Shown piece after piece: positions 2,195 through 46,963 of a DNA stretch of 64,000 nt (its first letter is position 1; each line of letters opens with the position of its first letter). The stretch comes from an uncultured bacterium (GTDB taxonomy: Bacteria; Myxococcota_A; CAZTSL01). The notes beneath the pieces are model-generated. The model searched no databases, had not been told where the DNA came from, and saw only the letters and a program-made list of their open reading frames with translations. The position numbers were made by a program, and so were the translations under genes. Location of the stretch: positions 12,090-76,089 of the forward strand of contig CAZTSL010000002.1 in the NCBI GenBank assembly GCA_964616915.1, written 5' to 3'.

Positions 2195-3307
2195 CTACTG
2201 GTGACAGATGTTGCAATCGGTGGATGCCTGGGAACGGAGCCAATGGGTCGGCACCTCCACCCCCTTCTTGCGGTGGCAGTTGACGCACCATCCCATCGAA
2301 AGATCGCTCACCTGGCGAATCCGTTCCATCTCCTGGACCGGTCCGTGACACTCCTGGCACGTGATCCCATTTCGGACATGTGCCTCGTGGGTAAAGTGGA
2401 CGAAGGCGGGGAGCCGATGGACACGTACCCACCGGATCGGTTTCGGCGTATCGCTCTTTCGGCTCTCCCAGGCGGCCCGGATCTTGGCGATCTCGGGGGA
2501 GGGATGCGCCTGCCCCCGGCGCCGATCGACGATCCGGTGGCAGTTCATACAGACCCCGACGGCGGGCACGCCCGCCACGGGTCCGCGCTCCGCGCCGCTG
2601 TGGCAGTAAAGACAGGAGATCTCCATCTCCCCGGCGTGCAGGGCATGCGAGAAGGCGATCGGCTGTTCGGGTTCGTATCCCTGGTCGTTGCCCCAGAGAT
2701 GGTGGTAGCGGTAACCGCCGAGGCTCCAGTAGAGGAGGAAGGCCGCCACGATCCCGAGCGTTCCGAGAAGACCGTTGTACCCGGCCCCCCAGGCCGCAAG
2801 GCCAAGGAGCACGACGACCCCGAGGGCCACGAGTCCTCCCCGATGGACCGGGCCTCGCGGACCGGGACCCGCGATGCGCCGATCCTTCTTCTCCGGGAGG
2901 AGCGGCCGGGGAATCTCCACGCCGCCGCCCCCCTCGCTCACCGTCTCGATATAGGCGATCATCGCCTCTGCCTCGGAGCGCGAGAGGCCGAGTTCCGCCA
3001 TTCGCACGCCGTTGTAGCGTTTGAGCAGCTGCTGGGCGATCGGATCGGTGTCGAGATAGCGTCCCGGCGCGGTGATGAAACCGATCAGCCAATCCCGTTT
3101 CCGTCGCTTCGTGACATCCTTGAGGTCGGGGCCCACCCGGTCCCCTTGACCGATCGTATGACACTTGCTGCACTGCTGCGCAAAGCGCGCGGCCTGCTTC
3201 TGGAAGGTGCCGTCATCCTCCCCGGCCTTCCCACTTCCCGCCAGGCAGAGCCAAACGCCCAGGCTGAGGAGGAGAAGGCGCATCGAGGATCGAAATCGGA
3301 AAGGCAT
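2195..3307 (-). CDS. Membrane-associated hexaheme cytochrome c (six CxxCH motifs; QrcA/ActA/NapC-like electron carrier)
   Basis: Heme-binding motifs CSKCH, CLYCH, CMNCH, CQECH, CVNCH and CNICH. Signal/anchor MPFRFRSSMRLLLLSLGVWLCLAGS when started at the internal Met (3307). Hydrophobic segment GLVALGVVVLLGLAAW. Sits 14 nt upstream of the MopB gene. Confidence 0.75.
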   Translation of the reverse strand: MPFRFRSSMRLLLLSLGVWLCLAGSGKAGEDDGTFQKQAARFAQQCSKCHTIGQGDRVGPDLKDVTKRRKRDWLIGFITAPGRYLDTDPIAQQLLKRYNGVRMAELGLSRSEAEAMIAYIETVSEGGGGVEIPRPLLPEKKDRRIAGPGPRGPVHRGGLVALGVVVLLGLAAWGAGYNGLLGTLGIVAAFLLYWSLGGYRYHHLWGNDQGYEPEQPIAFSHALHAGEMEISCLYCHSGAERGPVAGVPAVGVCMNCHRIVDRRRGQAHPSPEIAKIRAAWESRKSDTPKPIRWVRVHRLPAFVHFTHEAHVRNGITCQECHGPVQEMERIRQVSDLSMGWCVNCHRKKGVEVPTHWLRSQASTDCNICHQ

Positions 3308-3379
3308 GGTCACTCCTTCGTCACACGTTTGAAAACTTGCTCCATCGTCTTCCATTCGGAACGAGGTTCCGGGTCGTTG

Positions 3380-4036
3380 TCAGGATGTCGGGTCGGACCG
3401 GACGGTTTCGTCTGCTCGAACGCGACGCTCCGGAACGATCCGGATCGCCGAGGCGGGGCAGATCTGGGCACAGATCCCACACCCCGTGCAGCGGTCGTCG
3501 GAGACGGCGGCCTTCTGCCCCGGCGCGGTGAGCGTGATCGCCTTGGGCTTCTCGGGGCAGTGTTTCACGCAGTAGTCGCACGGCTGCCCTTGCGCCATGT
3601 AGCAATGCGCTTCCTCGACGACCGCCCGCCCCACGGTGAGGCGGGCTCCCGGAGCGGGAAAGGAGAGGGCCCCCGCCTCGCAGGCCGCGATGCAGGGCCA
3701 ATCCGCACAGAGGTGGCAGGGACTCTCATGGGGAATCATGATCGGAGAGCCGGCCAGCGCTGCGCCCAGTTCCGGTCCCGCCTTCCGGATCGCCCAATGG
3801 GGGCATGCCTTCACGCATTCGTCGCAGCGGGTGCAGGCGGCCAGGAACGCCTCCTCCGGCAGTGCGCCCGGGGGGCGGACGAAAAGGGGCCGCTGCGGCG
3901 TGGCGGCCCCTTCTCTGAGCGCCCTTTCGACTTCCCGCAACGGCGCGCGCACGCCCTGGACCACCTCGTCGAGGAGGCGAAAGGCCTCCGCAAATCCGAG
4001 GCGGAAGAATTCTTTCCTGCTGTAGCATTCCTTCAT
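3380..4036 (-). CDS. NapG/MauM-type 4Fe-4S ferredoxin (third paralogue, no clear Tat signal)
   Basis: Multiple CxxCxxCxxxCP motifs (CTRCDECVKACP, CHLCADWPCIAAC, CDYCVKHCP, CTGCGICAQICP). RPPGALPEEAFLAAC matches the block in the two Tat-NapG paralogues at 7.6-8.9 kb. Confidence 0.7.
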   Translation of the reverse strand: MKECYSRKEFFRLGFAEAFRLLDEVVQGVRAPLREVERALREGAATPQRPLFVRPPGALPEEAFLAACTRCDECVKACPHWAIRKAGPELGAALAGSPIMIPHESPCHLCADWPCIAACEAGALSFPAPGARLTVGRAVVEEAHCYMAQGQPCDYCVKHCPEKPKAITLTAPGQKAAVSDDRCTGCGICAQICPASAIRIVPERRVRADETVRSDPTS

Positions 4037-4129: not shown

Positions 4130-5965
4130 TCACATCGCCGAAACCCGCATCTCCATCGGCTGGCGCAGCAGCCAGAGGCTGAAGGTGCTGAAGAGCACCA
4201 TCGCGATCAGCATGGGAAGTTGACAGAAGAATGCATCCCTACGGTTGGGAACCAACTTTCGTGTGGTTCGTTCTGTGATCCAGAGGCTGTAGACATGACC
4301 GATGAGGACGAAGAGGACCTGGATCCACCACAACCCCTCGAGCGAGATGAGCGGCGGAACGTTCCATCCCGCCGTCCCGAAGAGATTCCACCCCCGCCCC
4401 AGGGGGTCGGAGAGGAGGGCCACGATCTTCGGGCCTTCCATGAAGAAGTGCCCCGCGTTGTGCGCGAGATGATAGAAGAGCGCGATCGGCAGGAGCGCAT
4501 AGGCGTAGTGGAGGAAGAGCGCACGGGTACCGTGGGGAGCACTCCACCGTGCCGAGATCCGGGCGATCAGCGCAAAGAAGGCGATCGGCAGGAGGAGCAT
4601 CCCGAGCATGAGGAGGCCGAAGGAAAGCCCCGGGGCGATCCCGAGCGTCCTCTGAAGGGCCTCGTTCCACGCATGCCAGGCCGGCGTCATCGTCAGACCA
4701 TGAAACCCCGTCATCGAAAGGAGGATGATCGCAAGAAATGCCTCATCGGTCCGGGGTTTGCCCATCGCCGCCAGATCCGCCCCCCACGGCCGCGCGCGGA
4801 TCGCGATGTTGTCGTGCGGACAGGTCTTGAGACATTCCGTGCAGAGGATGCAGTAGGTGCTCTCCTTCATCACCCGGGGGAACTCGAAGGTCGGACATCC
4901 ATCCCCCCGATCGTTCCCCTTGAAACAGTCGTGCGTCTTGCAGGAACGGCAGACCGCCTCGTCCTCTGCCCGGAGTTCGAGACTCGAAAAGAGCGCATAG
5001 AGGCCCGAGACACGCCCCACCAGGCATCCATAGCGGCAGAACGACTTGCGGTCGAACACGAGCGCCGAGACGATCGCAAGGCCGAGGATGATGAGGGCGA
5101 CCCACGCCGTGGCCCGCGGGATCGACGTGATCCCCATCCCCAGCTCCACCCAGGTGAGGAGCACGAAGAGGATCACCGCGAACCAGATGTTGCGCATCCG
5201 CCGCGGCCAGGGGAGACGCAGCCCCAGTCCCGAGCGGCGGGGAGACTTTAGACTCAGCCGCTCGAGCCAGGTGGCGAGCGCGTCCCAGGGACAGACGTAG
5301 CACCACGCCTTCCCGAAGTAGAGGATGAGGAAGATCAACCCCGCCCACCAGATCGTCCACGTGAGGAGCGGCGCGATGTTCATCGTGGGGTTCTGGTTGC
5401 CGAAGAGGCCCGCGTAGATGATGAAGAGGAAGATCGCCACCATCATGAGACGGGCGCTCGTCTGAAATCCCGGCCGGCGCAGCAGGCGCCGCACCCCGGG
5501 ATGGGCCGTCAGCGGTTTCCGTGCAGCGATCGCAGGGACCACCGGTGCCCGCTTGCCGGCCCGCCAGGAGACGAACTCGAAGATGCCGAAAGAGAGAAGG
5601 AGCACGATCGCCACCGAAGCCTGGTACATCCAGGTCGGAAGCCCCTGCATCGTATGCCCTCCCCGCCGCGCCTGCGGGGCACGCATCCATCGCGCCGGAT
5701 CCTCCAGGAAGCGATCCCGGCAGCGCGTGCTGCAGAAATAGAAGGTCCGCGATCCGATCCGGAGGGGGTAGGCCGTGCGCGGCCGGACGTTCATCCCGCA
5801 CACGAGGTCGCGAACGCTCCCCACAGGGACATCCCCGGCAGGCGATACCGCGGCATTCGCCGGCAGCTCGATCACATCCCGCACCCGGCTCTGATCGAAA
5901 ACGATGATCCCCACGACGAGCGCAAGGAGGAACCATGGGAATGCCAGGGCGAACCGCCGATTCAT
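4130..5965 (-). CDS. NapH/MauN-type integral-membrane polyferredoxin with an N-terminal YHS/TRASH metal-binding domain
   Basis: Start MNRRFALAFPWFLL at 5965; the annotated 804 aa ORF has an implausible G/R-rich N-extension. YHS motif DLVCGMNVRP...YFCSTRCRDRFLEDP. NapH-like CYVCPWDA. Cys clusters CRYGC, CRSCKTHDC, CILCTECLKTCP. More than eight hydrophobic helices. Confidence 0.7.
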   Translation of the reverse strand: MNRRFALAFPWFLLALVVGIIVFDQSRVRDVIELPANAAVSPAGDVPVGSVRDLVCGMNVRPRTAYPLRIGSRTFYFCSTRCRDRFLEDPARWMRAPQARRGGHTMQGLPTWMYQASVAIVLLLSFGIFEFVSWRAGKRAPVVPAIAARKPLTAHPGVRRLLRRPGFQTSARLMMVAIFLFIIYAGLFGNQNPTMNIAPLLTWTIWWAGLIFLILYFGKAWCYVCPWDALATWLERLSLKSPRRSGLGLRLPWPRRMRNIWFAVILFVLLTWVELGMGITSIPRATAWVALIILGLAIVSALVFDRKSFCRYGCLVGRVSGLYALFSSLELRAEDEAVCRSCKTHDCFKGNDRGDGCPTFEFPRVMKESTYCILCTECLKTCPHDNIAIRARPWGADLAAMGKPRTDEAFLAIILLSMTGFHGLTMTPAWHAWNEALQRTLGIAPGLSFGLLMLGMLLLPIAFFALIARISARWSAPHGTRALFLHYAYALLPIALFYHLAHNAGHFFMEGPKIVALLSDPLGRGWNLFGTAGWNVPPLISLEGLWWIQVLFVLIGHVYSLWITERTTRKLVPNRRDAFFCQLPMLIAMVLFSTFSLWLLRQPMEMRVSAM

Positions 5966-6588
5966 ACCGCATCCTCCATCGAGTCGGTCGCGTCGGCCTG
6001 CCGGCGCCGTGCCATCTTGATCCGGGCGGCCCGGATCACGACGAGCAGGAAGGTGAGCCCGCCGCCGAAGGCGAGCAGCGGCGTCCAGGGGGAGCCAGGC
6101 TGCCCCACCACCATCGGAAAGCGGAGGGTCGAGACGACCTTCCCATCCTGGAAGGTGAGGACGACCTCGTAGTTCCCCTCCGCCGGGTAGACGGGGTAGA
6201 ACTTGAAGACGTTCTCGTCGAGCGTCGTCGTATCGGGTCCGAAGACGACCTTCTTCCCCCCGAAGATCCCCTGCTCCTGGATCGTGAGCGTCATCGGAAG
6301 ATCGTAGGGCGTCCGATCGAGACGGGAGACGACATAGACGTTGAGCTGCGTCCGCTCCCCGGGGGCGGGGTTGCCCGGATAGCTCGTCAACTGGAACTCC
6401 CAGTCGCCCACGTCCTCGAGGAGCTTGAGCACCGGCGCCTGGGGATAGTTCTCGTCGTAGGCGTAGTGGGGGATCCCCATGATGTGATGCGCGGCCGCGG
6501 CGGTGGGGAGGAGGAGCAGGAGAGAGGCCAGCGCCCCCCCCCACCCGCGCCAGGGAGGGATTCCCATTCCTTTCCGGTCACGCGACAT
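5962..6588 (-). CDS. Exported protein of unknown function embedded in the nap-like operon; signal peptide, His-rich N-terminus and C-terminal TM anchor
   Basis: Probable start at MSRDRKGMGIPPWRGWGGALASLLLLLPTAAAAHHIMGIPHYAYDENYPQ. C-terminal helix LLAFGGGLTFLLVVIRAARIKMARRR. Start codon uncertain, alternatives 6567-6693. Confidence 0.5.
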   Translation of the reverse strand: MSRDRKGMGIPPWRGWGGALASLLLLLPTAAAAHHIMGIPHYAYDENYPQAPVLKLLEDVGDWEFQLTSYPGNPAPGERTQLNVYVVSRLDRTPYDLPMTLTIQEQGIFGGKKVVFGPDTTTLDENVFKFYPVYPAEGNYEVVLTFQDGKVVSTLRFPMVVGQPGSPWTPLLAFGGGLTFLLVVIRAARIKMARRRQADATDSMEDAV

Positions 6589-7657
6589 CCCGAACCTCCT
6601 TCTCATGCCCGGGACTCGGATCTCCCTTCCCATCCTTCGCCGCAGGTCCCGGGATCCCGGAACTCGTCGTGGAGAGCGCGTACCCGATGGCATCGTCGGG
6701 ACAGACGTCGATACAGACGCCGCAGTTGTCGCACTCCATTCCGGTGCGGTCCGTCATCGGCAGGAGACCCCGAGGGCAGTGGACGTTACAGAGGGTACAG
6801 AGGGTGCAACGATCGACCTTCCGGCGAATCCGGAGGATCCGGTAGCGCCCGAGCGCGGAATAGATCGCCCCCCCGGGGCAGACCGAACGGCAGAAGAAAC
6901 GGGGCGCAAGGAAGATCTCTCCGAGCAGGAGCGCAAGGAAGAAGAGGGAGGCGCCCGAGAGCCCCCCCACGACGAAACGCACCCCGCCGTTTTCCGCCAC
7001 GTCGAAGAGGTTGAGCACGAAGGCGTGGATCTCCCGGCTCACGATCGCTGGCGGATAGATGTAGTCGAGCAGGGGAAGCCCCACCACGAGCGTGAAGAGG
7101 AGTCCCACACCGAGAAGGACGTATTTGTTTCCCCGCCAGATCCGGAGTGACGGAGGATGAATTTCGAGGAATTTCACGAAGGTTCGCACCTTCGCCGTCA
7201 TGTCGAAGAGGAAGCCTGCCGGACAGATCCATCCACAGAACACCCGTCCGAGAAGGAGGGTGAGGAGGAGGGGGAGGAGCAACCCCGTCCAGAAGGCCAC
7301 CGTAAAATTCCATGAGGCAACGAAGCTCTCCGCTCCCGCCAGCAGATCGGTCATCGAGACCCCGAAGAGGGTGATCGACCAGGGGGAACCGTAGAACTTC
7401 CGGGTCCGTTCGAGGATCGCCTTGCGGGGACGACGGGTCGGAACCCCCCCCTCCCCGTCCGGAATCCCGAGGCGGATGACCCGGTCGGTGGCAGCCAGGA
7501 GTTCCCCCTGCGTGCTCCCCCCCCACTTCTCGATCCGGTTGTCGAGCTGGCGCGCGGAGAGGTAGTGACTGTAGCGTGCCAGGATCGGCAGCGCGATCGT
7601 GAGGAGCAGGACGAGGAGTTGAATCGTGCGGCGCCAGGGCCAGATCTTCGTCTTCAT
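6578..7657 (-). CDS. NapH/MauN-type membrane polyferredoxin
   Basis: Start MKTKIWPWRRTIQLLVLLLTIALPIL at 7657. Motifs GRVFCGWICPAG, CRSVCPGGA, CTLCTLCNVHCP, CDNCGVCIDVCP. Four or more TM helices. Confidence 0.75.
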   Translation of the reverse strand: MKTKIWPWRRTIQLLVLLLTIALPILARYSHYLSARQLDNRIEKWGGSTQGELLAATDRVIRLGIPDGEGGVPTRRPRKAILERTRKFYGSPWSITLFGVSMTDLLAGAESFVASWNFTVAFWTGLLLPLLLTLLLGRVFCGWICPAGFLFDMTAKVRTFVKFLEIHPPSLRIWRGNKYVLLGVGLLFTLVVGLPLLDYIYPPAIVSREIHAFVLNLFDVAENGGVRFVVGGLSGASLFFLALLLGEIFLAPRFFCRSVCPGGAIYSALGRYRILRIRRKVDRCTLCTLCNVHCPRGLLPMTDRTGMECDNCGVCIDVCPDDAIGYALSTTSSGIPGPAAKDGKGDPSPGHEKEVRDVA

Positions 7658-8259
7658 GCGAACCTCCGCCGGGAAAAGACCCGGATCGCCTTGTTCTCCT
7701 TGACGATGCAGGCATCCTCGCAGAGACCACAGCCGACGCACTGCTCGGGATCGACCGTGGGACGGTTGTGCTGTCCCTGCCGGATCGCCCGTCCCTTCAA
7801 GGGACAGGCGGTGAAACAGGCGCCACAGATCCCGGAGCCGTTGTGGCTGACGCAGAGCCGTTCATCGACGACGGCGGTCCCCATCCGGGCCTCGGTCATC
7901 TCCGAGAGGGGTTCGATCGCTCCCGTGGGACACGCCGCCCCGCACGAGAGACAGAGCGTGCAGGCCGTCTCCTCGGGGAGGATGAAGGGGGTTCCCTGGT
8001 GTTTCCCGCTCCCCTTGCCGAAGAGGCGGATCGCACCGGCCTGGCAGACCTCGGCGCAGCGCGTGCAGCGGATGCACCTGGCCAGGAATGCCGTCTCCGC
8101 CACGGAACCGGGGGGGCGGATCAGTCCCCGACGATCCCATTCGGGAAGGAGGTAGTTCGGGCGTTCCTTTTCCACCCCCCCCATGAACCCCAGGAGGAGA
8201 CCGAACCCGAGCGCGCTCCCTGCCGTCTTCTTGAGAAACTGCCGTCGGTCCATCGTCAT
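7654..8259 (-). CDS. NapG/MauM-type periplasmic 4Fe-4S ferredoxin with Tat signal
   Basis: MTMDRRQFLKKTAGSALGFGLLLG (twin-arginine). CIRCTRCAEVCQ, CTLCLSCGAACP, CGACFTACP, CVGCGLCEDAC. 4-nt overlap with the downstream napH-like gene. Confidence 0.75.
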   Translation of the reverse strand: MTMDRRQFLKKTAGSALGFGLLLGFMGGVEKERPNYLLPEWDRRGLIRPPGSVAETAFLARCIRCTRCAEVCQAGAIRLFGKGSGKHQGTPFILPEETACTLCLSCGAACPTGAIEPLSEMTEARMGTAVVDERLCVSHNGSGICGACFTACPLKGRAIRQGQHNRPTVDPEQCVGCGLCEDACIVKENKAIRVFSRRRFA

Positions 8260-8882
8260 CCCCCCCGCTGCCGATCCGGGACGATCGAGATCGCCTGCGG
8301 ATAGCGGATACACGCCCGCTCGCACAGCCCACAACCGACACAGTAGGTGGGATCGAGGATCGGTTGTTCCATGAAGCCTGCGCGCAGCGCCTTCCCCTCG
8401 AAGGGACACGCCTTGACGCAGACCCCGCAGGAACTCCCCTGGTAGGAGTAACAGAGGTTCTCGTCGAGGGTGGAGACCCCCATCGAAACCTTCTCCTGGA
8501 TCGCCGCAGCGTCCTTTTCGACGGGAACGAGCGCGCCGGTGGGACAGGCCGCCGTACAGAGCAGCATCTTCCCCTGGTCCCCGCCGCAGAGGTTACAGGC
8601 TTGCAGGCGGGGGAAGATCACCGGGGTTCCGACCTCCGCCCGCCCCGGGGCCATGGAGAAGGGCCGCCCCGCTTCCCGGGTGAAGGGGCGGATCGCCTGG
8701 TTCGGACAGGCATCGCCACATTGGCCACAGCGGATACAACGGGCGAGGAATTCGTCCTCCGGGAGGGCCCCCGGCGGACGAAGCACGGCCCCCCCCGCTT
8801 CCGTGGGACGCAGGAAGCCGAAGCCCGCGGCCAGCGAGCCCGCCACCACCGTCACGTTCCGCAGGAAACCCCTGCGGCTCAT
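8256..8882 (-). CDS. NapG/MauM-type periplasmic 4Fe-4S ferredoxin with Tat signal (paralogue)
   Basis: MSRRGFLRNVTVVAGSLAAGFG (twin-arginine). CIRCGQCGDACP, CNLCGG...CTAACP, CGVCVKACP, CVGCGLCERAC. The start could be 8906. Confidence 0.75.
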   Translation of the reverse strand: MSRRGFLRNVTVVAGSLAAGFGFLRPTEAGGAVLRPPGALPEDEFLARCIRCGQCGDACPNQAIRPFTREAGRPFSMAPGRAEVGTPVIFPRLQACNLCGGDQGKMLLCTAACPTGALVPVEKDAAAIQEKVSMGVSTLDENLCYSYQGSSCGVCVKACPFEGKALRAGFMEQPILDPTYCVGCGLCERACIRYPQAISIVPDRQRGG

Positions 8883-8930
8883 CCGTCTGAACCAGGACGA
8901 TGCCATCCCCTCTGCTCCCCGGAACGCCGT

Positions 8931-11699
8931 TCAGATCTTCTCGATCCGGGCGGCGAGCTTCTTGTAGTCCGCCTGTCCCGACACCGGATCCCAGGCGCGG
9001 TGGCTCACCGCGTTGACGAGCCAGCGGTTCTTCTTCGGGTCGGCGCTGTCGGCCACCGAGAGGTTCCACGGGCTGAAGAGATAACCGGAGGGCACCTCGG
9101 AACGCGCCGGTTTGACGAGAGAATCGGTGCCGACCGAGACGCGGGCCTCGAAAGAGCCGCGCCGCGTCACCACCCGGACCTTTTCGCCATCCTCGAGACC
9201 GTAGCGCTCCGCGTCGTCCTCGTTGACCTCGACGTACTGCTCCGGCACGAGTTTGAGGGTCGTGGCCCCCCGGATCGTCTTCGAGGTGTGGAAGTGCTCG
9301 TAGACGATCCCGAGCCCGAGCCAGAAGGGATACTTGTTCTCCTTCTTCGCATCCTCGAGGCTCTTCGATTCGTCACGGAAGAAGTCGAGGTCGGGGAGTT
9401 CCGGAACGAGGGCGTTGTCCCGGGCGTGGACGAGGAGCGCGAGATGATCGATGAGGAAGGGCTGCTTCTCCGCCGCGGCCAGGATCTCCTTGTTCGAGGC
9501 CCCCTTGTGGACGAGTTCTCCGACGCTCTCCCCGAAGGTCATCAGCTTCGCACACGTCTCCTTCAGCGTGTCGTAGTTCTGCTCGCAGAGTTTGAAGTGC
9601 GCCTTTCCGTCCGGTTTGGGGAAGTTGCCGTACGGCTTGCCCGGCCAGTTCTCCTGTCCCATGTAGCGGCGCGCGACTCCTCCCTTCTTGGCGAGTTCGT
9701 AGGTCGGTGCGGGCCACTGGATGCCGCGCAGCCGGCGGAGCTGCTCGTAGGGGCTGATCCCATCCTTCTGCTCCACCTCGAGGATCCCGGTCAGGTCGGC
9801 GTCGGAGCCCTTGGAGGCCCGGATGATGTCGCGGAAGACCTCCTCCGGATCGTAGAACTTCTGGCCGTACTTGTTCGTGATCGTCTTCTTGTAGGGGAGG
9901 ATCTTATCGACGTCGAGGCCGAGCTTCCTGCCGATCGACCTGGCCTTGTCGATCGCAAGATCCATGTCGGGGCGGGCCTCCATGAGGACCTTCCCCTTGG
10001 CGTTGCGGCCAACCCCGACGCCGTCGTTGACGTAGAGCCGCCGTTCGCTCTGGATGTAGACACCGCCGCTCCATTCTCCCCATGTGATCGCCGGGAAGAC
10101 GACGTCGGCGTAGAGGAGGTTGGGGGCATGACGGTAGATGTCCTGGGCCACGGTGAAGGTCTTCATCATCGCGGGGCGAACGAGGGTCTGGACGTCGGGG
10201 AGATGGATGTGCGTCGTGTACATCCAGAACATCGCCTTGAGATCCCCTTTGAGGGCCCGTTCCATCATCCCGATCGCCATCGGGTTCTTCTGGCTCGCCG
10301 TGATGTTGAGCCGTCCCGCCGGCAGGCGCCAGCATTTGTTGATCCATCCGCGCCACTTCTCGTCGTTGAGCCCCTTGTTGAAGGGGAGACGGCCGGTCAA
10401 TCCTCCCATGAGGCGTTCGCTCATCGCGTTGGGCTGCCCCGTCTGGGAATGGGTGCCACAGCCGGGCCGCCCGATGTTTCCTGTCAGGAGGTGGAGGTTC
10501 ACGATCGAGATCGTGTTGTGCTGCCCGTGGAGCATCTGGTTGTAACCGATCCCCCAGAAGGTCAGCACGCCCCCCTTGCCCCGTTTTCGCCCCTTGATCG
10601 AGGCCTCGGCCCAGATCTTGGCGATCTTTTCGATCTGCTCGACGCTCACACGCCCCTGATCGATGATCTTGAGCCGCTCCACGACCTGTTGGGGCGAGTA
10701 GCGCGCCTTGATCCCCGCCACGTACTCCCGCCAGCCCGTCGTGTTCTCGTCGAGCCACTTCTCCGGCATCACGGCCTCGGGATACTTCGTGAGGATCACG
10801 TGCGCGATCGCGTTGAGGTAGGAGATGTCCCCGTTGATCGTCTGGAAATGGTACGAGTTGCGGGGGTTGACGTCCTCGAGGCCGGTGACGGTCCCGGTGC
10901 GCCGCGGGTCACTCACCAGCGTGGGAATATCCGTCTTCTTCTTGTGGTCCGCCACCCGCCAGAAGAGCACGGGGTGCGCCTCACGCGCATTGTGCCCCCA
11001 GAAGGTGATGAAGTCCGCCATCTCGATGTCGTCGTAGCTCGTGGGGGGGGTGTCGGAACCGAACGTCGCGAAATACCCCGTCACCGCCGAGGTCATGCAC
11101 ATCCGGGCGTTGGCCTCGATCGAGTTCGACGTGAGAATCCCCTTCATGAGGAGGTTCTCGATCCACTGGGCCTCCATCGTGAGCTGGCCCGAACCGCTCA
11201 GCCCCACGCTGTTGCCCCCGAACTTCTTCACGATCGCGGCGATCTTCTCCGCCACGATCTCTTCCGCCTCCTCGTAGCTCACCCGCCGGAAGACCGAATC
11301 GTCGAAACGCCCCTTGCTCTCGGAGACGTGTCCCGTCAACGGATCGGTCATGTCCTTCCGGACGAGGCAGTACTCGAGGCGATCCTGGTAGACCGGCTCG
11401 TTGGCGTTCAGCCCTTTGATGCACTGGATCCCCTTGTTCGTGGGGTGCGCCTTGTCGGGGACCATCCCTACGATCGTATCCCCCTCGACCTGGATCAGGG
11501 TCCCGCATCCCACCCCGCAATAGGGACACTGCGACTGAAGCTGCCGTCTCTTGGGTGTGGCCTTCCCCTCCGTCTCCGCCGCCATCACGAACTCGCCGGG
11601 GAAGAGCGACGAAACCCCTGCCGCCGCCGTCGTCACGCCGGAGATCTTCAGGAAATCCCGCCGCGATACCGGATGCTTCTCATCCTTCTTGCGTTTCAT
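8931..11699 (-). CDS. Tat-exported molybdopterin oxidoreductase catalytic subunit, NapA-like (periplasmic nitrate reductase-type), about 923 aa
   Basis: Start MKRKKDEKHPVSRRDFLKISGVTTAAAGVSSLF at 11699. N-terminal CPYCGVGCG ... NKGIQCIKG Fe-S motif, the NapA/Nas-type 'CIKG' signature. Length about 920 aa as in epsilonproteobacterial NapA. Followed by napG/napH-like genes. Confidence 0.8.
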   Translation of the reverse strand: MKRKKDEKHPVSRRDFLKISGVTTAAAGVSSLFPGEFVMAAETEGKATPKRRQLQSQCPYCGVGCGTLIQVEGDTIVGMVPDKAHPTNKGIQCIKGLNANEPVYQDRLEYCLVRKDMTDPLTGHVSESKGRFDDSVFRRVSYEEAEEIVAEKIAAIVKKFGGNSVGLSGSGQLTMEAQWIENLLMKGILTSNSIEANARMCMTSAVTGYFATFGSDTPPTSYDDIEMADFITFWGHNAREAHPVLFWRVADHKKKTDIPTLVSDPRRTGTVTGLEDVNPRNSYHFQTINGDISYLNAIAHVILTKYPEAVMPEKWLDENTTGWREYVAGIKARYSPQQVVERLKIIDQGRVSVEQIEKIAKIWAEASIKGRKRGKGGVLTFWGIGYNQMLHGQHNTISIVNLHLLTGNIGRPGCGTHSQTGQPNAMSERLMGGLTGRLPFNKGLNDEKWRGWINKCWRLPAGRLNITASQKNPMAIGMMERALKGDLKAMFWMYTTHIHLPDVQTLVRPAMMKTFTVAQDIYRHAPNLLYADVVFPAITWGEWSGGVYIQSERRLYVNDGVGVGRNAKGKVLMEARPDMDLAIDKARSIGRKLGLDVDKILPYKKTITNKYGQKFYDPEEVFRDIIRASKGSDADLTGILEVEQKDGISPYEQLRRLRGIQWPAPTYELAKKGGVARRYMGQENWPGKPYGNFPKPDGKAHFKLCEQNYDTLKETCAKLMTFGESVGELVHKGASNKEILAAAEKQPFLIDHLALLVHARDNALVPELPDLDFFRDESKSLEDAKKENKYPFWLGLGIVYEHFHTSKTIRGATTLKLVPEQYVEVNEDDAERYGLEDGEKVRVVTRRGSFEARVSVGTDSLVKPARSEVPSGYLFSPWNLSVADSADPKKNRWLVNAVSHRAWDPVSGQADYKKLAARIEKI

Positions 11700-11840
11700 C
11701 CATCTGCCTCCCAACAAAGAAGATCCACGGAAAGCCTGGCTCTTTGGACGCGGCTTGGAAAGCAAAATGAATACCACGCCCACGAGAAAAATCCTCCCTC
11801 TCCCAGAAAAAAGGACTGAATGGTATTTTTTCAGGATCGA

Positions 11841-12001: not shown

Positions 12002-12949
12002 TCACCTGGCGGCGCTGCACGAGCCCCCGCCCAGAACGCAGAATTTCGCGCAGTGGGGATGATTGAGCTTCACGACGCCGGCGGCTTCCTCGAGGGTGCG
12101 GCCCATCTCGAAGCGTTCGTCGTAGGGGAGAAGGGTGCAGGAGAGGACCACGGGGTGGGGGGTCCCCTTCCGTTTCACGACCATACGGGAGGTCGCGCAC
12201 ATGACCGACCTGGGGTCGATGCCGAGGATCTCCCAGCACTTCGTCGTGATCTCCGGGACCTCGGCTCCTTCGTCCATCTCGGGGAAGAGGACGAGGCGGG
12301 TGGGGTCGCAGGGATCGATCGAGAGCCCGAGGGCGCGAAAGAGCGTCGCGAATCCCGCGCGCAGCTTCTCCTCCGGCTCGTCCCAACAGGTCCGTCCCGC
12401 CACGGAGAGGGAGAAGCCCTTTTCCGCCAGCCATCGGACCCCTTCGATCATCGGCGCCCACGACCGGGGGCCCCGCTCCTTCTCGTGACATTCCGGGGTG
12501 TAGTGGTCGATCGAGACGCGCAGTGTGAGGCGTTTCCCGAAGCGATCCCGGAGTTCGAGCAGGTCTTCCCTCTTCTTCTGCATCGGCCTCATCGCATTCG
12601 TGAGCACGAGGACCTCGAAGCCCCGCTCGAGCGCGCTTCGCAGGATCGCGACGATCTCGGGATTCATGAAGGGTTCGCCGCCGGTGAACCCGATCTGACG
12701 GGTGCCCAGGGCTTTGGCTTCGATCTCGTCGAGGTAGGTGGCGACCTCGTCACAGGTGAGGTAGACGAGTCGGTCGTTCGTGGGGGTCGATTCGATGTAG
12801 CAGTTGCGACAGGCGAGGTTGCACAGGGTTCCCGTATTGAACCAGAGGGTTTCGAGCCGTTCGAGGGGGACGAAGGCGCGGGGTTCCCCCTTGGCCGTGA
12901 TGTCGGGATGCTGGAATTTGCCATGGACGAGGGCTTCTGCTTCTTTCAT
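12002..12949 (-). CDS. Radical SAM protein with Cys-rich C-terminal tail (rSAM/Cys-rich domain family, ArsS-like architecture)
   Basis: CNLACRNCY (CxxxCxxC) near the N-terminus, GGEPF glycine motif, C-terminal HPHCAKFCVLGGGSCSAAR. Confidence 0.7.
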   Translation of the reverse strand: MKEAEALVHGKFQHPDITAKGEPRAFVPLERLETLWFNTGTLCNLACRNCYIESTPTNDRLVYLTCDEVATYLDEIEAKALGTRQIGFTGGEPFMNPEIVAILRSALERGFEVLVLTNAMRPMQKKREDLLELRDRFGKRLTLRVSIDHYTPECHEKERGPRSWAPMIEGVRWLAEKGFSLSVAGRTCWDEPEEKLRAGFATLFRALGLSIDPCDPTRLVLFPEMDEGAEVPEITTKCWEILGIDPRSVMCATSRMVVKRKGTPHPVVLSCTLLPYDERFEMGRTLEEAAGVVKLNHPHCAKFCVLGGGSCSAAR

Positions 12950-12994: not shown

Positions 12995-13828
12995 TCATGA
13001 GATGTCGAGGATCGCCAGGGTGGGTGGTTGTCCCAGGCGAAAGGGGAGGATGCTGTTGCCAAGGCCGGGGGAGACGTAGAGGCGGGAGGTCCCAAGGGGG
13101 TACCACCCCCGCACGAACCCGGCGCTGCCGGGGGGAAGGCGGAGCACGACCCCGAAGGGGGTGATCTGGCCCCCGTGGGTATGCCCCGAGAGGATCAACG
13201 TCGCGGACCCACGCCGCCGGGCGATCTCATGGGCGGTGGCGGGACAGTGGCTCAGCACGATCGTGGGGGTTCCCGGCTTTTCTTCCAGGAGGGCGTAGTC
13301 CGGCCGGCCGCCCAGGAGATCGTCGAGCCCCACGATCCTGATGGACCTCCCTGCGATCTTGCAGGTGCGACGTCCGTTGACGAGGAGTTCCACGCCGGCT
13401 GCTCCATAGGCCTCCGCAAGGCGATCGCGGTCGAGCCCCCCCCAGTACTCCCAGTTCCCGAGGATCGCGAACTTCCCCCCCCTTGCCCGCATCCCCCGGC
13501 AGATCTCCCCGATCAGCGCCTCCCGGTGAGGCGTATCGGCCATGTCGCCGAGGATGCAGAGGAAGTCGCACCCCGCCTCGTTGATCGCATCGATCAGTTC
13601 GGCAGTCTCGAAGGTGTAGTAGGGGGCGTGCAGATCGGTGACGATCCCGATCCGAAGGGGGGTGGGAAGGTTCCAGAGGCTGGCGCGTTCGTACACCACG
13701 CAGAGCCGGTTCGAACGCCAGGCGTAGGCCCCCGCCGGAAAACCGAGCAGCCCCGAGAGCGCAATCGTCCCCTTGAGGAAGCCACGACGGGTGGGGCGAG
13801 TTTTCCCCTTTCCAGCGGGCTCGTTCAT
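12995..13828 (-). CDS. Tat-exported calcineurin-like metallophosphoesterase
   Basis: MNEPAGKGKTRPTRRGFLKGTIALSGLLGFPAGAYA Tat signal. Phosphoesterase motifs GDMAD (GDxxD), GNWEY (GNHE-like) and GHTHGG. Confidence 0.7.
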   Translation of the reverse strand: MNEPAGKGKTRPTRRGFLKGTIALSGLLGFPAGAYAWRSNRLCVVYERASLWNLPTPLRIGIVTDLHAPYYTFETAELIDAINEAGCDFLCILGDMADTPHREALIGEICRGMRARGGKFAILGNWEYWGGLDRDRLAEAYGAAGVELLVNGRRTCKIAGRSIRIVGLDDLLGGRPDYALLEEKPGTPTIVLSHCPATAHEIARRRGSATLILSGHTHGGQITPFGVVLRLPPGSAGFVRGWYPLGTSRLYVSPGLGNSILPFRLGQPPTLAILDIS

Positions 13829-14370
13829 GGAATATTCTTCCCCTCGTCGTAGGTACCGTCGAAATCGGTATCGGTCTCGATCCGGATCGGCTTGATCCGT
13901 CCCGGCCGGTAGATCGACCGCTTGTCCGGTTTGCCGTCGAAGTTCGAATCGCGCTCGAGGAGTTTCCGGATCCCCTTCTCGTCGTAGGTGACCCACACGT
14001 CGGGCTTGCCATCGGCTTCGTTTCCAGGACCGTTGTAGTCGAAGACCGCTTTGCGGATCACGTCGTTGTAGTAATAATACCATTCATCGACGGTACCGTC
14101 GAGGTTGCGATCCGTCTCGAAGCGCGAGCGCAAGCCCTCCTCGTAGTAGGTCCATTCGTCCGCCTTTCCGTCGTGGTTGCGGTCGTTGACCTCCTCGAGG
14201 ATCTCCCCCCGCAGCCAATAGCTCCAGTGATCCGGACGTCCGTCCCCGTTTCGGTCCTCCACTTCGAGCCGCTTCACGAAGAGGAAACGGTAGCCGAGCA
14301 GGAAGAAGATCCCGAGGAGGATCACCAGGATGGCCAGTGAAAAATTCCGTCGTTTCGTCGATACGCCCAA
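13825..14370 (-). CDS. Membrane-anchored protein with six DxDxDG-type (EF-hand-like) calcium-binding repeats
   Basis: N-terminal TM LAILVILLGIFFLLGY, then repeats DRNGDGRPDHW, DRNHDGKADEW, DRNLDGTVDEW, GNEADGKPDVW, DSNFDGKPDKR, DTDFDGTYDEG. Confidence 0.6.
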   Translation of the reverse strand: MGVSTKRRNFSLAILVILLGIFFLLGYRFLFVKRLEVEDRNGDGRPDHWSYWLRGEILEEVNDRNHDGKADEWTYYEEGLRSRFETDRNLDGTVDEWYYYYNDVIRKAVFDYNGPGNEADGKPDVWVTYDEKGIRKLLERDSNFDGKPDKRSIYRPGRIKPIRIETDTDFDGTYDEGKNIP

Positions 14371-16600: not shown

Positions 16601-18085
16601 GCATCGGCCAGAAGCGGGAGACCGCCGGGGGAGAAACGGATCCCTGTAAGCCTCCCTCCCCCCTCGAGCCCTACGACGGGGTGAAAGAGGAAGAGCACGG
16701 GAAGCGCCTCCCCGATCTCTTCCTCGATTCCAAAGAGAGCCTCCCAGCGGGCGGAGGGATCGGAAAGGGTGCTCAGACGGGGGACCCTCTGGCAGGCTTC
16801 CCCTGCTCCACCCGGGAGGAAACGGGCCGCATCCGCACAGAAATCCTCCAGCGCGAGAAAGGGGTCGGGGAAGGCCGCATGCCAGAAGAGGAGCGCCAGA
16901 TCGAACCTCCCCGCAGCCAGGCGCCGTTGGAGCGTCCTTTCTTCCAGGAACTCGATCCGGGCGTGCCAGCCGAGTTTCTCCTCGAGAAAGACCTCGATCC
17001 GCCGGGCAAGCCGTCGGACCGTCTCCCCCCCTTTGGGGACGAGGAAACGGATCTTGGGTCCTTCCGCCCTCGAAGGGGGGAAGGGGGGGGCTTGCGTCCC
17101 TTCGTGGCGGAGTGCGGCGTAGAAGACCGTCCGGTCGGGGAGGATCCCCCTCCCCGGCTCCGTGCCGGGTGCGAGATAGGTGCGAACGAGATCCCCCTTG
17201 TCGATCGCGGCACGCAGCGCGCGCTCCCCCTCTGCGATCGCCGCTTTCCCTCTGTTCCAGAGGAGGAGCGTGGTCGAAGCGGGGGGGAGGAAGCGCTCCT
17301 TTGCCTCGAGTTCCGGAAAGCGAGGCGCGGGATCGCGAAAGTGCAGATCGATCCGGCGCTCAGGCGTCCGATCCACCCGTTCCTCCACCACGACGATCCG
17401 GTCGAGGAAGGGGCGTCCCTCATGGTGCTGGGGGTTGGCGGCCAACACGATCCGTCCCTTCCGCGCCTCGATGAAGCGGAAGGGACCGCTTCCCACGGGG
17501 AGGGAGGACGCAAGCTTCCGGTGACGTGGCATCACCGCCGTGGCCGGGTGCGCCAGCCGCAGGGGAAGATCGGATACCGGCCGGGAGAAGGTGATCTCCA
17601 CGGTGAAGGGATCGGGCGCGACGATCCCCACCCGCGTCCCCTCCCCCCGATGAAACGCCTCTCCCCCCTCCACATCACGCAGAATCCACCAGTAGGGCGA
17701 ATCCACTCGGGGATCGAGGAGCCGACGCAACGAGGCGACCACATCGTGGGCCGTCAGCAACACGCCGTCGTGGAAGTGGAGGTCGGGAAGAAGGCGAAAG
17801 CGGAAGCGCCTTCCTTCCTCTACCTCCCACGATGCCCCGATCAGGAGATTGGGACGGGGCACGCCCCCCTCGTCGATGCGAAAGAGCGTCTCGTAGAGGT
17901 GCAGGTCGAGGAAGCGCGCAGCCGCCCCCTCGGCCAGAGGGGGGGGGACGACCTCGAGGGGCGGGGGAAGGGCGATCACGACCTCCCCTCCGTAGCGGGG
18001 CGCCGCCGCTCCAACGAAGAGAAGAAGGAGCAGGAGCAGGAGCAGGAAGAAAGGTCCCCCGACACTCGGGAAACGATGATTCACC
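16582..18085 (-). CDS. ABC-transporter solute-binding protein, family 5 (peptide/nickel/opine type), orphan (no permease or ATPase nearby)
   Basis: Signal FFLLLLLLLLLFVGAAAP after a probable GTG start near 18085; the annotated 692 aa ORF has an implausible N-extension. Size and composition fit SBP_bac_5. Start codon position approximate. Confidence 0.55.
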
Positions 18086-18398
18086 CCCTTCCCCCCGATC
18101 CGGACACCATCCGCTCCGGAGAGAGACGCAGGCGTTCCTTCAGTTCCTCGATATAGGCCCAGAGGACCTCGGGCTTCGCCTTGAAGAACCCATGCTGCCC
18201 CTCCCGGCGCACATCGAGCAATCCCGCGTCGGTCAGGATCTTGAGATGGTGGGAGACCGTCGATTGCCCGATCGGAAAACGCTCCGCCACCGCGCCGCAA
18301 GACATCTCCTCCGTTCCCGCGATGACCTCGAAGATCTCGAAGCGCCGGGGGTCGGCAAGCGCCTTTGCGATCCGGATGAATTGCTTGTCGTCCATCAC
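18081..18398 (-). CDS. ArsR/SmtB-family metalloregulatory transcription factor
   Basis: Winged HTH with DPRRFEIFEVIAG...MSCGAVAERFPIGQSTVSHHLKILTDAGLL, 105 aa. Confidence 0.8.
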   Translation of the reverse strand: MMDDKQFIRIAKALADPRRFEIFEVIAGTEEMSCGAVAERFPIGQSTVSHHLKILTDAGLLDVRREGQHGFFKAKPEVLWAYIEELKERLRLSPERMVSGSGGRG

Positions 18399-43618: not shown

Positions 43619-43742
43619 AAGGCAATGGGGGCAATGGAGAGAGCCACCATGCAAGACGCACCGGGGAGAGCCAACGAACGAGATCTCCATCGCAACGCGG
43701 GGAGCATCCTTTTCCCACGGCAGCCATCAGGAGGAATACGCC

Positions 43743-46700: not shown

Positions 46701-46925
46701 CGGATCTCCCGCAAACTCGAAGAGACCGAAAGGCGTCTCAAGAGCGATCCACAGCTCCGCACCGCCCTCGAAGCCCTTCGCACCACCTACGAAGAAGCGA
46801 TCCTCGACCGGAAATTCCCGAAACGACAGCTACAGGACGCCCAGACGGCCCGGATCGACGAGATCCCCATCCTCGAGAAACTCAAGAGCGCCTGTGAGGA
46901 TCTCCTCCAGAGCACGAGCGCGTAG
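43743..46925 (+). CDS. FtsZ/tubulin-superfamily GTPase with about 700 aa C-terminal extension (1060 aa); not a canonical cell-division FtsZ
   Basis: T1 loop YPTFFIGLGGTGGKTVNRIARKF (compare FtsZ GGGGxNAVNRM). T4 / tubulin signature FCFGSIAGGTGSGSFLPLA (GGTGSG). Charged, coiled-coil-like E/R-rich C-terminal region. Confidence 0.8.
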   Translation: MADQIYPTFFIGLGGTGGKTVNRIARKFKTNWNYETLRNSVAFFTFDTDRSDLEGFSDIPKENRFLLHIPRKKEFVDRVRGAGYLDPDPFYTSWMHPDYGFHIEGGKGAGQIRIESRLTFTYRIEHPDLQLGHRDILRAFQDAIGRALDPDNNATRRQPAYFQIFCFGSIAGGTGSGSFLPLAYTLQHLLQERGWETITALCLFDPEVFEPEVQNALKKDIQANGYAALMETDHFMRLSAEGGHHSLPKKIRFHTRKAWPRLVDRAPATIVYLCGIPKHFSMEKIASMINAVADASYFQVFSPLLGLQEAESVNFVRHQLGLVQQVFSAHYGAFGCCLLHVPDEDILLYCGLRFAETALRRYVLLEGEVELLEGEGEENLSEEEKADAEDERFCFWIDRKAEEEVRDRKREGIFQKIRGGRLPSGETLQEVIEAAVAETLQEIPQAIRLSRLSTNDLSEYRYGLDPYRNRLVEELAESKARLQRHLRTVTYDIANGTFLGRIFKGCQADPFMQRYALIDLKRRLRTAISDGQEPRNPDDPTASAVIDRLRSWEDELARTAPYTMKERLFQRENRDFIETREQAVADFNRVVEANQRAMEAHAKREIEEALFHQVMERLRAFRTLMSLGKALVEELEEEADRFQRSGVPPEGESQANAFFLDEEALQDLEGNRLWKTFYEAEIVPKEVELFQPAEIFAAIEEASAPRLDPRGRTQSPTPEEVRRALKAKLVQLGCKRLRPRIVGMERNVAPRDQQGLLIDEALLLEARFVLEKRQKAGEILSFGPDEIAAYIREKLGHAKRRSGHLAKIENLEDPEVKPCPISLVAFHECYQEALPHQNGSLADHLREISPEGRWVENWHDRKRIVFYQATLGVPLFYFPYVRKTLRQAYEELDAKGVKERGYPLHIDAAFEKRLCPLTPERLQEFLARSLEERVAPRFVLGTLAGIVSHQDGAYHWKFGERWGDTLGSDLSQALRTYDALEPAIAERISRKLEETERRLKSDPQLRTALEALRTTYEEAILDRKFPKRQLQDAQTARIDEIPILEKLKSACEDLLQSTSA

Positions 46926-46963
46926 GGACGGCCAGCAGGGCGCCATGGCCCATCGAGTCTGGA

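Follow-up and report, generated by a model that had tools for sequence, protein, structure and literature searches.

The stretch considered here, which we call the window, is 64,000 nucleotides of DNA from an uncultured bacterium (GTDB lineage Myxococcota_A; contig CAZTSL010000002.1), and our subject is one gene in it, at 4130–5965 on the minus strand, that encodes a 611-residue YHS-polyferredoxin (the target in what follows). By its sequence, the target is a real, uncharacterized membrane iron-sulfur (Fe-S) protein with a periplasm-facing domain of copper type (YHS). The reading we favor, tentatively and with somewhat less than even confidence, is that it serves as a second, specialized NapH-superfamily subunit of a NapA-like module, built like NosR, PceC and CcoG, with its Fe-S clusters wired to probable periplasmic copper. 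The polyferredoxins of this superfamily (NapH, NosR, PceC, CcoG) are widespread. In addition to what the known members have, the target family has a periplasmic metal-type domain, a membrane domain rich in His and a CopC-like partner that is obligatory, and its genes are tied to that of an unclassified NapA-like enzyme in 60 or more species-level genomes from about ten phyla.

The gene call rests on the open reading frame (ORF), its start codon, public gene calls, an AlphaFold2 (AF2) model and the positive-inside rule. The ORF begins with an ATG at 5965 that overlaps the stop codon of the upstream gene (ATGA) and lies 6 nt behind a GGAGGA, and public assemblies contain a called protein identical to its 611-residue product. 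The first transmembrane (TM) helix and the YHS domain are kept in homologs down to 43% identity in an alignment of 32 family members. A first description of the gene by a model, the original prediction here, had allowed that the true start might lie farther downstream; an untranslated N-terminus is ruled out by the three observations just given, and the start codon is correct. The motifs quoted in that description are all present in the minus-strand ORF ending at 4130: DLVCGMNVRP...YFCSTRCRDRFLEDP corresponds to residues 53–91, CYVCPWDA to 222–229 and CILCTECLKTCP to 372–383.

Eleven TM helices are predicted, with the N-terminus inside and the C-terminus outside, from hydropathy and from Lys plus Arg counts averaged over the 32 family members. 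Loops 135–167, 221–259, 305–407, 471–483 and 566–577 are positively charged and therefore cytoplasmic. The same prediction puts residues 26–111 (the YHS region), the short loops and, at the C-terminus, QPMEMRxSAM on the periplasmic side. The protein begins with a signal anchor; the YHS/TRASH domain comes next, followed by an HxMxGxP motif; and a 4-TM core leads to a cytoplasmic part with eight Cys and then to a 5-TM His domain, which ends in a Met-rich tail. The anchor (TM1, residues 5–25; 5891–5953; all features of the target, its operon and the genes downstream of it, here and below, are on the minus strand) has a hydropathy peak of 2.66 and coincides with an AF2 helix at 3–26; no AxA cleavage site was found after it on inspection. 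Fifteen Cys are invariant in the alignment. The AF2 model, made from the same 32 sequences, has a pLDDT of 82.8 and a pTM of 0.86. We found no solved structure with a homologous fold, and a PDB sequence search with the target gave nothing beyond a weak similarity to PsaC-type ferredoxins (E about 0.01).

The YHS/TRASH domain (residues 52–93; 5687–5812) is placed by Pfam and by invariant columns. It had been proposed in the original prediction from the motif, and the profile bears it out: PF04945 matches residues 52–93 of the target with E=1.8e-6 and 28.3 bits, just below the gathering score of 30.3, and 31 of the 32 aligned members match it as well, the best with E=7e-23. The score below gathering is thus peculiar to this one sequence, and a chance match is ruled out by the relatives. 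About 90% of the best 120 homologs have a precomputed PF04945 match. Six residues of the domain, D53, C56, M58, F77, C78 and C82, are invariant in the 32 sequences. TRASH modules are of roughly 45 residues and carry the pattern C-x(19-22)-C-x3-C, and we read the Cys spacing of the target, C56-x21-C78-x3-C82, as this pattern. Beyond it, at the periplasmic start of TM2, is an invariant H104-x-M106-x-G108-x-P110 motif (5636–5656), recognized from the alignment columns.

For copy number and synteny, we compared the 80 best loci among 362 GTDB species genomes by tblastn with the operon proteins of the window; these 80 are all from metagenome-assembled genomes (MAGs) and span about ten phyla. TRASH is single in 25 of these loci, double in 29 and triple in 19, and seven have no copy. 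In five of the seven TRASH-less forms, which are from MAGs of Binatia and of Myxococcota type, a short linker is found instead, with an MSCH motif in four of them; of the other two, L077 has a linker rich in His and L078 is a fragment at the edge of a contig. In four paralogs (P0172, P0207, P0209 and P0220) two to three CxxCH heme-c motifs stand in place of the YHS/TRASH module, and P0207 has a precomputed match to Cytochrome_C554. Heme c is attached only outside the cytoplasm, so that CxxCH motifs at this position lend independent support to a periplasmic YHS domain. The side of the membrane, which the original prediction left to a topology analysis, is thus given as the periplasm by the positive-inside rule in the 32 members, and the CxxCH paralogs agree. 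The exchange of a heme-c domain for TRASH also argues for a role in electron transfer.

The NapH-related 4-TM core (TM3–TM6; 5006–5464) was delimited by the NCBIfam NapH alignment to residues 211–389, a Fer4_5 alignment to residues 201–240, the invariant Cys and the loop charges. Its two Cys motifs, C222-x2-C225-P and C310-x3-C314, are predicted to sit at the cytoplasmic face. The cytoplasmic domain that follows (4817–4951) presumably holds two [4Fe-4S] clusters, as suggested by eight invariant Cys, an hhalign match to the NapH-like family and the weak PsaC similarity. The first of its motifs is C339xxC342x4C347...C357P (CxxCx4Cx9CP), and the second, C372xxC375xxC378xxxC382P, is canonical.

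How far this makes the target a NapH can be judged from profile scores. Against TIGR02163 (NapH/MauN) the target reaches 27.4 bits (cutoff 213.05), against the NapH equivalog NF007013 22 bits (cutoff 234), and against Pfam Fer4_5 21.3 bits (cutoff 22); the CcoG profile (TIGR02745) gives no match at E<=0.01, and the NosR profile gives none. The target family aligns by hhalign to the family of the NapH-like protein encoded in the same operon with 96.7% probability (E=4e-10, 79 columns), over residues 305–392 only, and by BLASTP the Fe-S region alone of the two proteins aligns (E=3e-5). NapH has four TM helices, two CX3CP motifs at the cytoplasmic face and two cytoplasmic [4Fe-4S] motifs of the form CxxCxxCxxxCP. 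Like NapH and MauN, the target is a membrane polyferredoxin with Cys motifs just past TM helices at the cytoplasmic face and with a cytoplasmic double CxxC...CP domain, and it is encoded with NapG-like ferredoxins exported by twin-arginine translocation (TAT; 71 of 80 loci) and a NapA-like enzyme (60 of 80). Unlike them, it has CX2CP and CX3C-L (C310-RYG-C314-L, with no Pro) in place of two CX3CP motifs, its first Fe-S motif is irregular (CxxCx4C...CP), and it has 11 TM helices rather than four, together with the periplasmic YHS domain and the 5-TM His-rich domain. A true NapH identity is ruled out by the scores, by the CX2CP and CX3C-L motifs and by a better paralog at 6578–7657. On these comparisons the NapH-like signal of the target is real but weak, and the target is not NapH. 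Of the NapH-type core claimed at first, a homology to the NapH-like family over residues 305–392 stands, and a NapH proper, with 27 bits against a cutoff of 213, does not; in the sense of the family, the label "NapH-type quinol-dehydrogenase subunit" is not supported. The description was also incomplete: it had missed the 5-TM His-rich domain, which makes up about a third of the protein.

This family-specific C-terminal domain (4133–4753) is defined by invariant columns and has no Pfam or NCBIfam family. Its invariant residues are H422, H499, H502, H506, H557, the SDP of 519–521 and the C-terminal QPMEMRxSAM. By hydropathy and the AF2 helices, H422, H499, H502 and H506 are near the periplasmic surface, and H557 is deeper, in TM10. 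A profile of residues 403–611 retrieves 2604 representative proteins.

Directly upstream is the gene of the partner, here HisExp (208 residues; 5962–6588), in which a beta-sandwich like that of CopC and CrdA lies between a Sec signal peptide and a C-terminal TM anchor. The fold, a CopC-like beta-sandwich, matches those of CrdA, P19 and PmoD (PMC9182242). No Pfam or NCBIfam family, including CopC, P19 and FixG_C, matches it at E<=0.01; every homolog is named "hypothetical protein"; and the D-x-H second half of the CopC Cu(II) site is not conserved. In the family HHI(L/M)G(I/L)PHYxY...YPQxP comes after the AxA that closes the signal peptide, the cleavage being a prediction only; the predicted mature N-terminus in the window is HHIMGIPHYAY. 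The AxA|HH site is conserved in 73 HisExp sequences, and H1, H2, H8, Y9 and Y11 of the predicted mature protein are essentially invariant.

That the target may be linked to a His-rich exported protein had been a suggestion of the original prediction, and the link turns out to be strong. HisExp adjoins the target upstream in 76 of the 80 loci and is fused to it in L033 and P0192. With the NapH-like protein, HisExp forms a single uninterrupted ORF in 53 of 70 loci (among L001–L075); in the window and its nearest relatives the two are split, as genes that overlap at 6578–6588 in different frames. These fusions retain the AxA|HH site, which suggests internal processing by signal peptidase. Triple fusions of the NapH-like protein, HisExp and the target are found in P0186 and P0199. 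Taken together as Rosetta stones, the fusions are indications that the three form one membrane complex.

In 60–71 of the 80 loci the partner and the target are part of one fixed module, whose other members are an unclassified NapA-like molybdenum (Mo) enzyme, a NapH-like protein and two proteins like NapG. In loci with the full set, gene order and strand were identical wherever rows were inspected. The NapH-like paralog (6578–7657), found in 70 loci, has two CX3CP motifs (FCGWICP and FCRSVCP) and scores 103 bits with TIGR02163 (cutoff 213), 46.9 bits with Fer4_5 and 19.3 bits with the CcoG profile TIGR02745 (cutoff 316.7). By these scores it is a better NapH candidate than the target, though also below threshold. 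Two NapG-like periplasmic ferredoxins are encoded next, each found in 71 loci: ferredoxin 2 (7654–8259; TAT motif DRRQFLK) with 131.8 bits against NF007012, and ferredoxin 1 (8256–8906; TAT motif SRRGFL) with 120 bits, both below the cutoff of 269.

The catalytic subunit (8931–11708) is a TAT-exported, NapA-like protein of 925 residues for a Mo-bis(pyranopterin guanine dinucleotide) cofactor, recognized by the Pfam families Molybdopterin, Molydop_binding and Fe4S4 and its TAT signal. It is present in 60 loci, at 64–87% identity across about ten phyla. Its NapA score is 309 bits (cutoff 904) and its Fdh-alpha score, at 286, is nearly level; its top PDB match is NapA of D. desulfuricans (236 bits). 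A Cys-Met stretch is retained ("rmCMtsav" aligned to NapA "r+cm sav"), at what we take to be the place of the Mo-ligand Cys of NapA. Databases name the protein "molybdopterin-dependent oxidoreductase" or "anaerobic selenocysteine-containing dehydrogenase". From its scores and alignment it is an unclassified NapA-like clade, and all module genes score under their equivalog cutoffs (NapA, NapG and NapH profiles). Immediately upstream of it in the window is a radical SAM gene (12002–12949, minus strand) that is not conserved, with four weak matches in the 80 loci; some relatives have instead a MoaA or hemerythrin gene, downstream of the cluster.

Around the module the context is respiratory and varies. 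Downstream of the target is a NapF/NapG-like ferredoxin (3380–4036), matched by the NCBIfam NapG and NapF families and taken as cytoplasmic, since inspection showed no signal peptide, RR motif or hydrophobic N-terminus; about half of the loci have a true ortholog of it. Next comes a membrane-anchored cytochrome c (2195–3355; start codon uncertain), which by Pfam and NCBIfam fuses monoheme and QrcA/ActA-like multiheme domains, with two internal TM helices, and is found only in the 16 closest loci. An ActB-like subunit of an operon resembling Alternative Complex III (ACIII), matched by Pfam Molybdop_Fe4S4 and Molydop_binding, is cut by the window edge (1–2180); orthologous loci carry on with NrfD/ActC and ActD. 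ACIII-like genes downstream of the cluster characterize the subclade of the window. In 56 of the 80 loci (L020–L080) a multi-domain cytochrome c of about 930 residues, with five cbb3-type monoheme domains and a c7-like multiheme part, is encoded upstream of the Mo subunit, about 6–10 kb upstream of the target, and in 40 a bc-type cytochrome b gene is found upstream of that. Both are absent from that position in the window. Three loci (L005, L007 and L046) have the partner and the target without the rest of the module: in L005 the two are directly ahead of ACIII-like genes, and in L007 they are alone.

The favored reading can now be stated more fully. The Cys and Met of TRASH, the periplasm-facing His and Met and the His-His N-terminus of the partner would together hold a metal that is thiophilic and redox-active, copper being the likeliest. 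Electrons would cross the membrane through the target, between this outer metal site and the cytoplasmic Fe-S clusters. The NapF-like ferredoxin encoded downstream could feed the cytoplasmic clusters, and in this way the target would work for the Mo enzyme and for both of the NapG-like ferredoxins in the periplasm.

The nearest precedents are the flavinylated NapH-like proteins. NosR and PceC carry an extracytosolic flavin mononucleotide (FMN) cofactor domain ahead of a NapH-like core (PMC8238504), and NapH-like proteins with such N-terminal domains have been proposed to be transmembrane electron-transfer modules in which cytochrome and flavin domains are swapped (PMC8238504). The target shares with NosR and PceC the signal anchor, an extracytosolic cofactor-type domain, the NapH-like TM core, the cytoplasmic Fe-S domain and an association with a periplasmic respiratory reductase, and the heme-c variants of its family resemble the modular swaps described for that group (PMC8238504). 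It differs in having no FMN_bind match, the YHS/TRASH domain taking that position; no ApbE is found among the annotated conserved neighbor families of the target loci; and the C-terminal 5-TM domain and the obligatory CopC-like partner are additions, the NosR profile giving no match. By analogy, we infer that the target works by a NosR- or CcoG-like design, yet it falls outside NapH, CcoG and NosR by every profile tested.

For copper there are several indications. YHS domains are found on Cu-ATPases and in a mycobacterial Cu-sensing cyclase, where the domain is a probable Cu sensor, and on this precedent binding of a transition metal (Cu) by YHS/TRASH is proposed (PMC4626032). The other indications are the fold of the partner, its AxA|HH site, the periplasmic His/Met motifs and the cupredoxin-like genes before Cys-less homologs (see below).

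Several points weigh against the favored reading. The AF2 model gives no cofactors. Across the membrane core (roughly 30 Å) no path is evident except the mid-membrane H557. TRASH/YHS is not an established electron-transfer center, and copper is not known to be required by NapA-type enzymes. A copy number that varies from zero to three is seen more typically in antenna domains that capture metal, such as those of P1B-ATPases. The occurrence of the pair without the Mo enzyme in L005, L007 and L046 means that it is not obligatorily part of that enzyme. Finally, the C-terminal domain gives weak matches to Pfam Sdh_cyt (PF01127) in 6 of 12 members (E 0.016–0.034, about 15 bits against a cutoff of 25.8), always over TM8–TM9, which may allow a heme b or quinone site instead of copper.

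The alternative that survives best, which we consider possible and clearly short of probable, is that the target and its partner handle copper and stand outside the electron path: in the manner of CcoG or CopCD, they would reduce Cu(II) to Cu(I), move copper, or both, either to supply a cuproenzyme or to keep copper off the periplasmic Fe-S proteins (the two NapG-like proteins and the Mo enzyme). The YHS domains of Cu-ATPases and of the cyclase (PMC4626032) fit it directly, as do the TRASH copy number, which at zero to three resembles that of heavy-metal-associated (HMA) domains, the CopC/CrdA-like partner with its predicted N-terminal His, and the survival of the pair without the Mo enzyme, beside ACIII genes in L005 and alone in L007. 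The series of periplasmic His, mid-membrane His and Cys motifs could form an ion path. A model for it is CcoG (FixG/RdxA; TIGR02745), a membrane ferredoxin-like cupric reductase (PMC8475189; PMC8456105). The target is of the same superfamily and would share its link to copper (PMC8475189), and the NapH-like and partner ORF of 53 of 70 loci repeats the CcoG layout of a polyferredoxin, an extra TM helix and a periplasmic Ig-like domain. The target differs from CcoG in that it lacks the periplasmic Ig-like domain which in CcoG follows a fifth TM helix at the C-terminal end, a comparable domain being encoded by the separate partner gene; the Cu(II) on which CcoG acts is cytosolic, and the putative metal domains of the target are periplasmic; and no ccoHIS or cbb3 oxidase genes are conserved near it. 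Nor does the CcoG profile match the target.

Two further systems offer a likeness. As in CopC-CopD and YcnJ-YcnI, a periplasmic protein of CopC fold with a predicted mature N-terminal His is combined with a His-rich polytopic membrane domain; here, unlike there, the membrane partner is predicted to carry Fe-S clusters, the D-x-H half of the CopC Cu(II) site is missing from the partner, and Pfam CopC and CopD were not detected. FtrD of the iron-uptake system FtrABCD/P19 is a polyferredoxin. There too, the gene of a membrane polyferredoxin accompanies those of small periplasmic proteins that depend on copper and are beta-sandwiches or cupredoxins (FtrA-P19, FtrB), and the Cys-less relatives of the TM core of the target adjoin Cupredoxin_1-like genes. 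The target loci differ from it in having no Ftr1/EfeU permease and no Pfam P19 match, and the context is a respiratory cluster with a Mo enzyme rather than iron uptake. The components of FtrABCD are named in PMC11966278. Against copper handling as such, no cuproenzyme that might be its client is conserved among the cluster neighbors in the 80 loci; the exchange of heme c for TRASH fits electron transfer better; and a factor of general homeostasis would not usually be linked to a Mo enzyme so tightly, near-universally and across phyla. If copper trafficking should prove right, the CcoG paradigm would be extended to the periplasm.

A bolder form of the electron-transfer idea, which we regard as rather doubtful, is that the module is an undescribed respiratory complex, in which a copper center made up of the His-His N-terminus, the TRASH Cys and the His at the membrane surface would be an obligatory redox station between the cytoplasmic clusters and the periplasmic molybdoenzyme, and reduction of nitrate or another oxyanion would depend on copper. 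Such a complex, if real, would occur widely among uncultured lineages, Planctomycetota, Elusimicrobiota, Binatia and Latescibacterota among them. A redox station of copper would be the first assigned redox function of a YHS/TRASH domain, and wiring through copper would tie anaerobic respiration of oxyanions, in lineages of groundwater and sediment, to the availability of copper. Whether copper is wired or handled, metagenome annotations that score such clusters as "napA" or "formate dehydrogenase" should be read with caution.

Nearest to the view of the original prediction is the possibility, which we find unlikely, that the target is a heme b quinol dehydrogenase: the 5-TM domain would be an SdhC/NarI-like heme b or quinone anchor feeding the Fe-S clusters, and YHS only a regulatory metal sensor or a dock for NapG. 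The Sdh_cyt matches cover TM8–TM9, including the YHLAHNAEH helix, and the Cys-less homologs inspected retain no His but H502 and H557. With as many NapG-like proteins as NapH-like membrane proteins, two of each, a set of two NapGH-type pairs is suggested, and NapH is the putative quinol-oxidizing subunit of Nap (PMC8238504, citing Brondijk 2002). Those matches, at about 15 bits and E about 0.02, are far under the cutoff, and the arrangement H499-x2-H502-x3-H506 with one His in TM7 and one in TM10 is unlike the di-heme spacings of cytochrome b and NarI. A heme b anchor would also leave the obligatory His-His partner and the Met-rich periplasmic motifs unexplained, and quinol oxidation is already covered by a bc-type complex or ACIII in most loci.

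The Mo subunit is itself an unclassified clade (309 bits against the NapA cutoff of 904, with generic database names), and three invariant Cys per TRASH domain might suit As(III)-type coordination. It could thus be imagined, as a very improbable case, that the enzyme reduces arsenate, selenate or tellurate, that TRASH traps or hands over the thiophilic product, and that the polyferredoxin keeps its Cys reduced. The NapA-like Cys-Met stretch of the subunit and its closest PDB match, NapA, speak otherwise; no ars, sel or similar genes are found among the conserved neighbors; the TRASH-less members (Binatia, Myxococcota) retain the entire cluster; and the His/Tyr motif of the partner is not thiophilic.

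Least credible of all is a sensor that reports periplasmic metal or redox state and controls the cluster, as historically held for NosR and NirI: YHS is a probable Cu sensor in the mycobacterial cyclase (PMC4626032) and a histidine kinase is encoded about 9 kb upstream in the window, but the kinase is not a conserved neighbor, the target has no output domain, and its fifteen invariant Cys and Fe-S fold argue for electron transfer.

The target is no rarity. Its homologs number 827 at E<=1e-3, the best 120 being 43–100% identical, and relatives are found in 362 GTDB species genomes; the best 80, all MAGs, are from Planctomycetota, Elusimicrobiota, Latescibacterota, Hydrogenedentota, Krumholzibacteriia, Eiseniibacteriota, Binatia, Verrucomicrobia, Gemmatimonadales, Cloacimonadota and "Deltaproteobacteria". 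The fusion had been called unusual; in frequency it is not, though it is unstudied. Database labels of the homologs are only "YHS domain-containing protein" or "polyferredoxin/YHS domain-containing protein", so that the existence of the fusion, visible in them, is not new. Our literature search on the YHS-polyferredoxin architecture, including YHS/TRASH with nap or molybdopterin genes and Planctomycetes, found no paper. What appear to be undescribed are the 5-TM domain, the CopC-like protein as an obligatory partner, the fusions, and the fixed tie to an unclassified NapA-like enzyme across many uncultured phyla.

Beyond the family proper, among the proteins retrieved with the profile of residues 403–611, the TM core and C-terminal domain recur in a large unannotated family of Cys-less membrane proteins of about 470 residues (P0244, P0270 and P0296; loci L081, L086 and L088). 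After the signal peptide they open with HGFGxRxDLPxP, and in three of three contexts a gene for a small, His-tailed, Cupredoxin_1-like protein precedes theirs. One heme-c paralog gene, at L083, follows an FGE-sulfatase-domain gene, to which it is translationally coupled, downstream of corrinoid biosynthesis genes. An Fe-S variant is found among AsnC-TRASH regulators, with a Temptin_C protein gene following it. Such metalloprotein neighbors make it seem that the TM core habitually works with a periplasmic metalloprotein partner.

Elsewhere in the window, at 18805–28026 on the plus strand, is a gene for a 3073-residue protein like polyunsaturated fatty acid synthases and polyketide synthases, with ketosynthase, acyltransferase, four acyl carrier protein, ketoreductase and dehydratase domains and a C-terminal 4'-phosphopantetheinyl transferase. 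Three large co-directional genes (43272–52290, plus strand) encode proteins of 1217 residues with Tubulin_2 (bacterial tubulin-like), of 828 residues with no family, and of 947 residues with a weak nSTAND NTPase match; the set could be a conflict or defense-type system. Two well-supported ORFs, at 13825–14370 (minus strand) and 16681–18156 (plus strand), have G+C contents at third codon positions of about 0.75–0.79 and no Pfam family; the one of 181 residues has repeated D-x-N/D-G-x-x-D-E-W motifs and may bind calcium.

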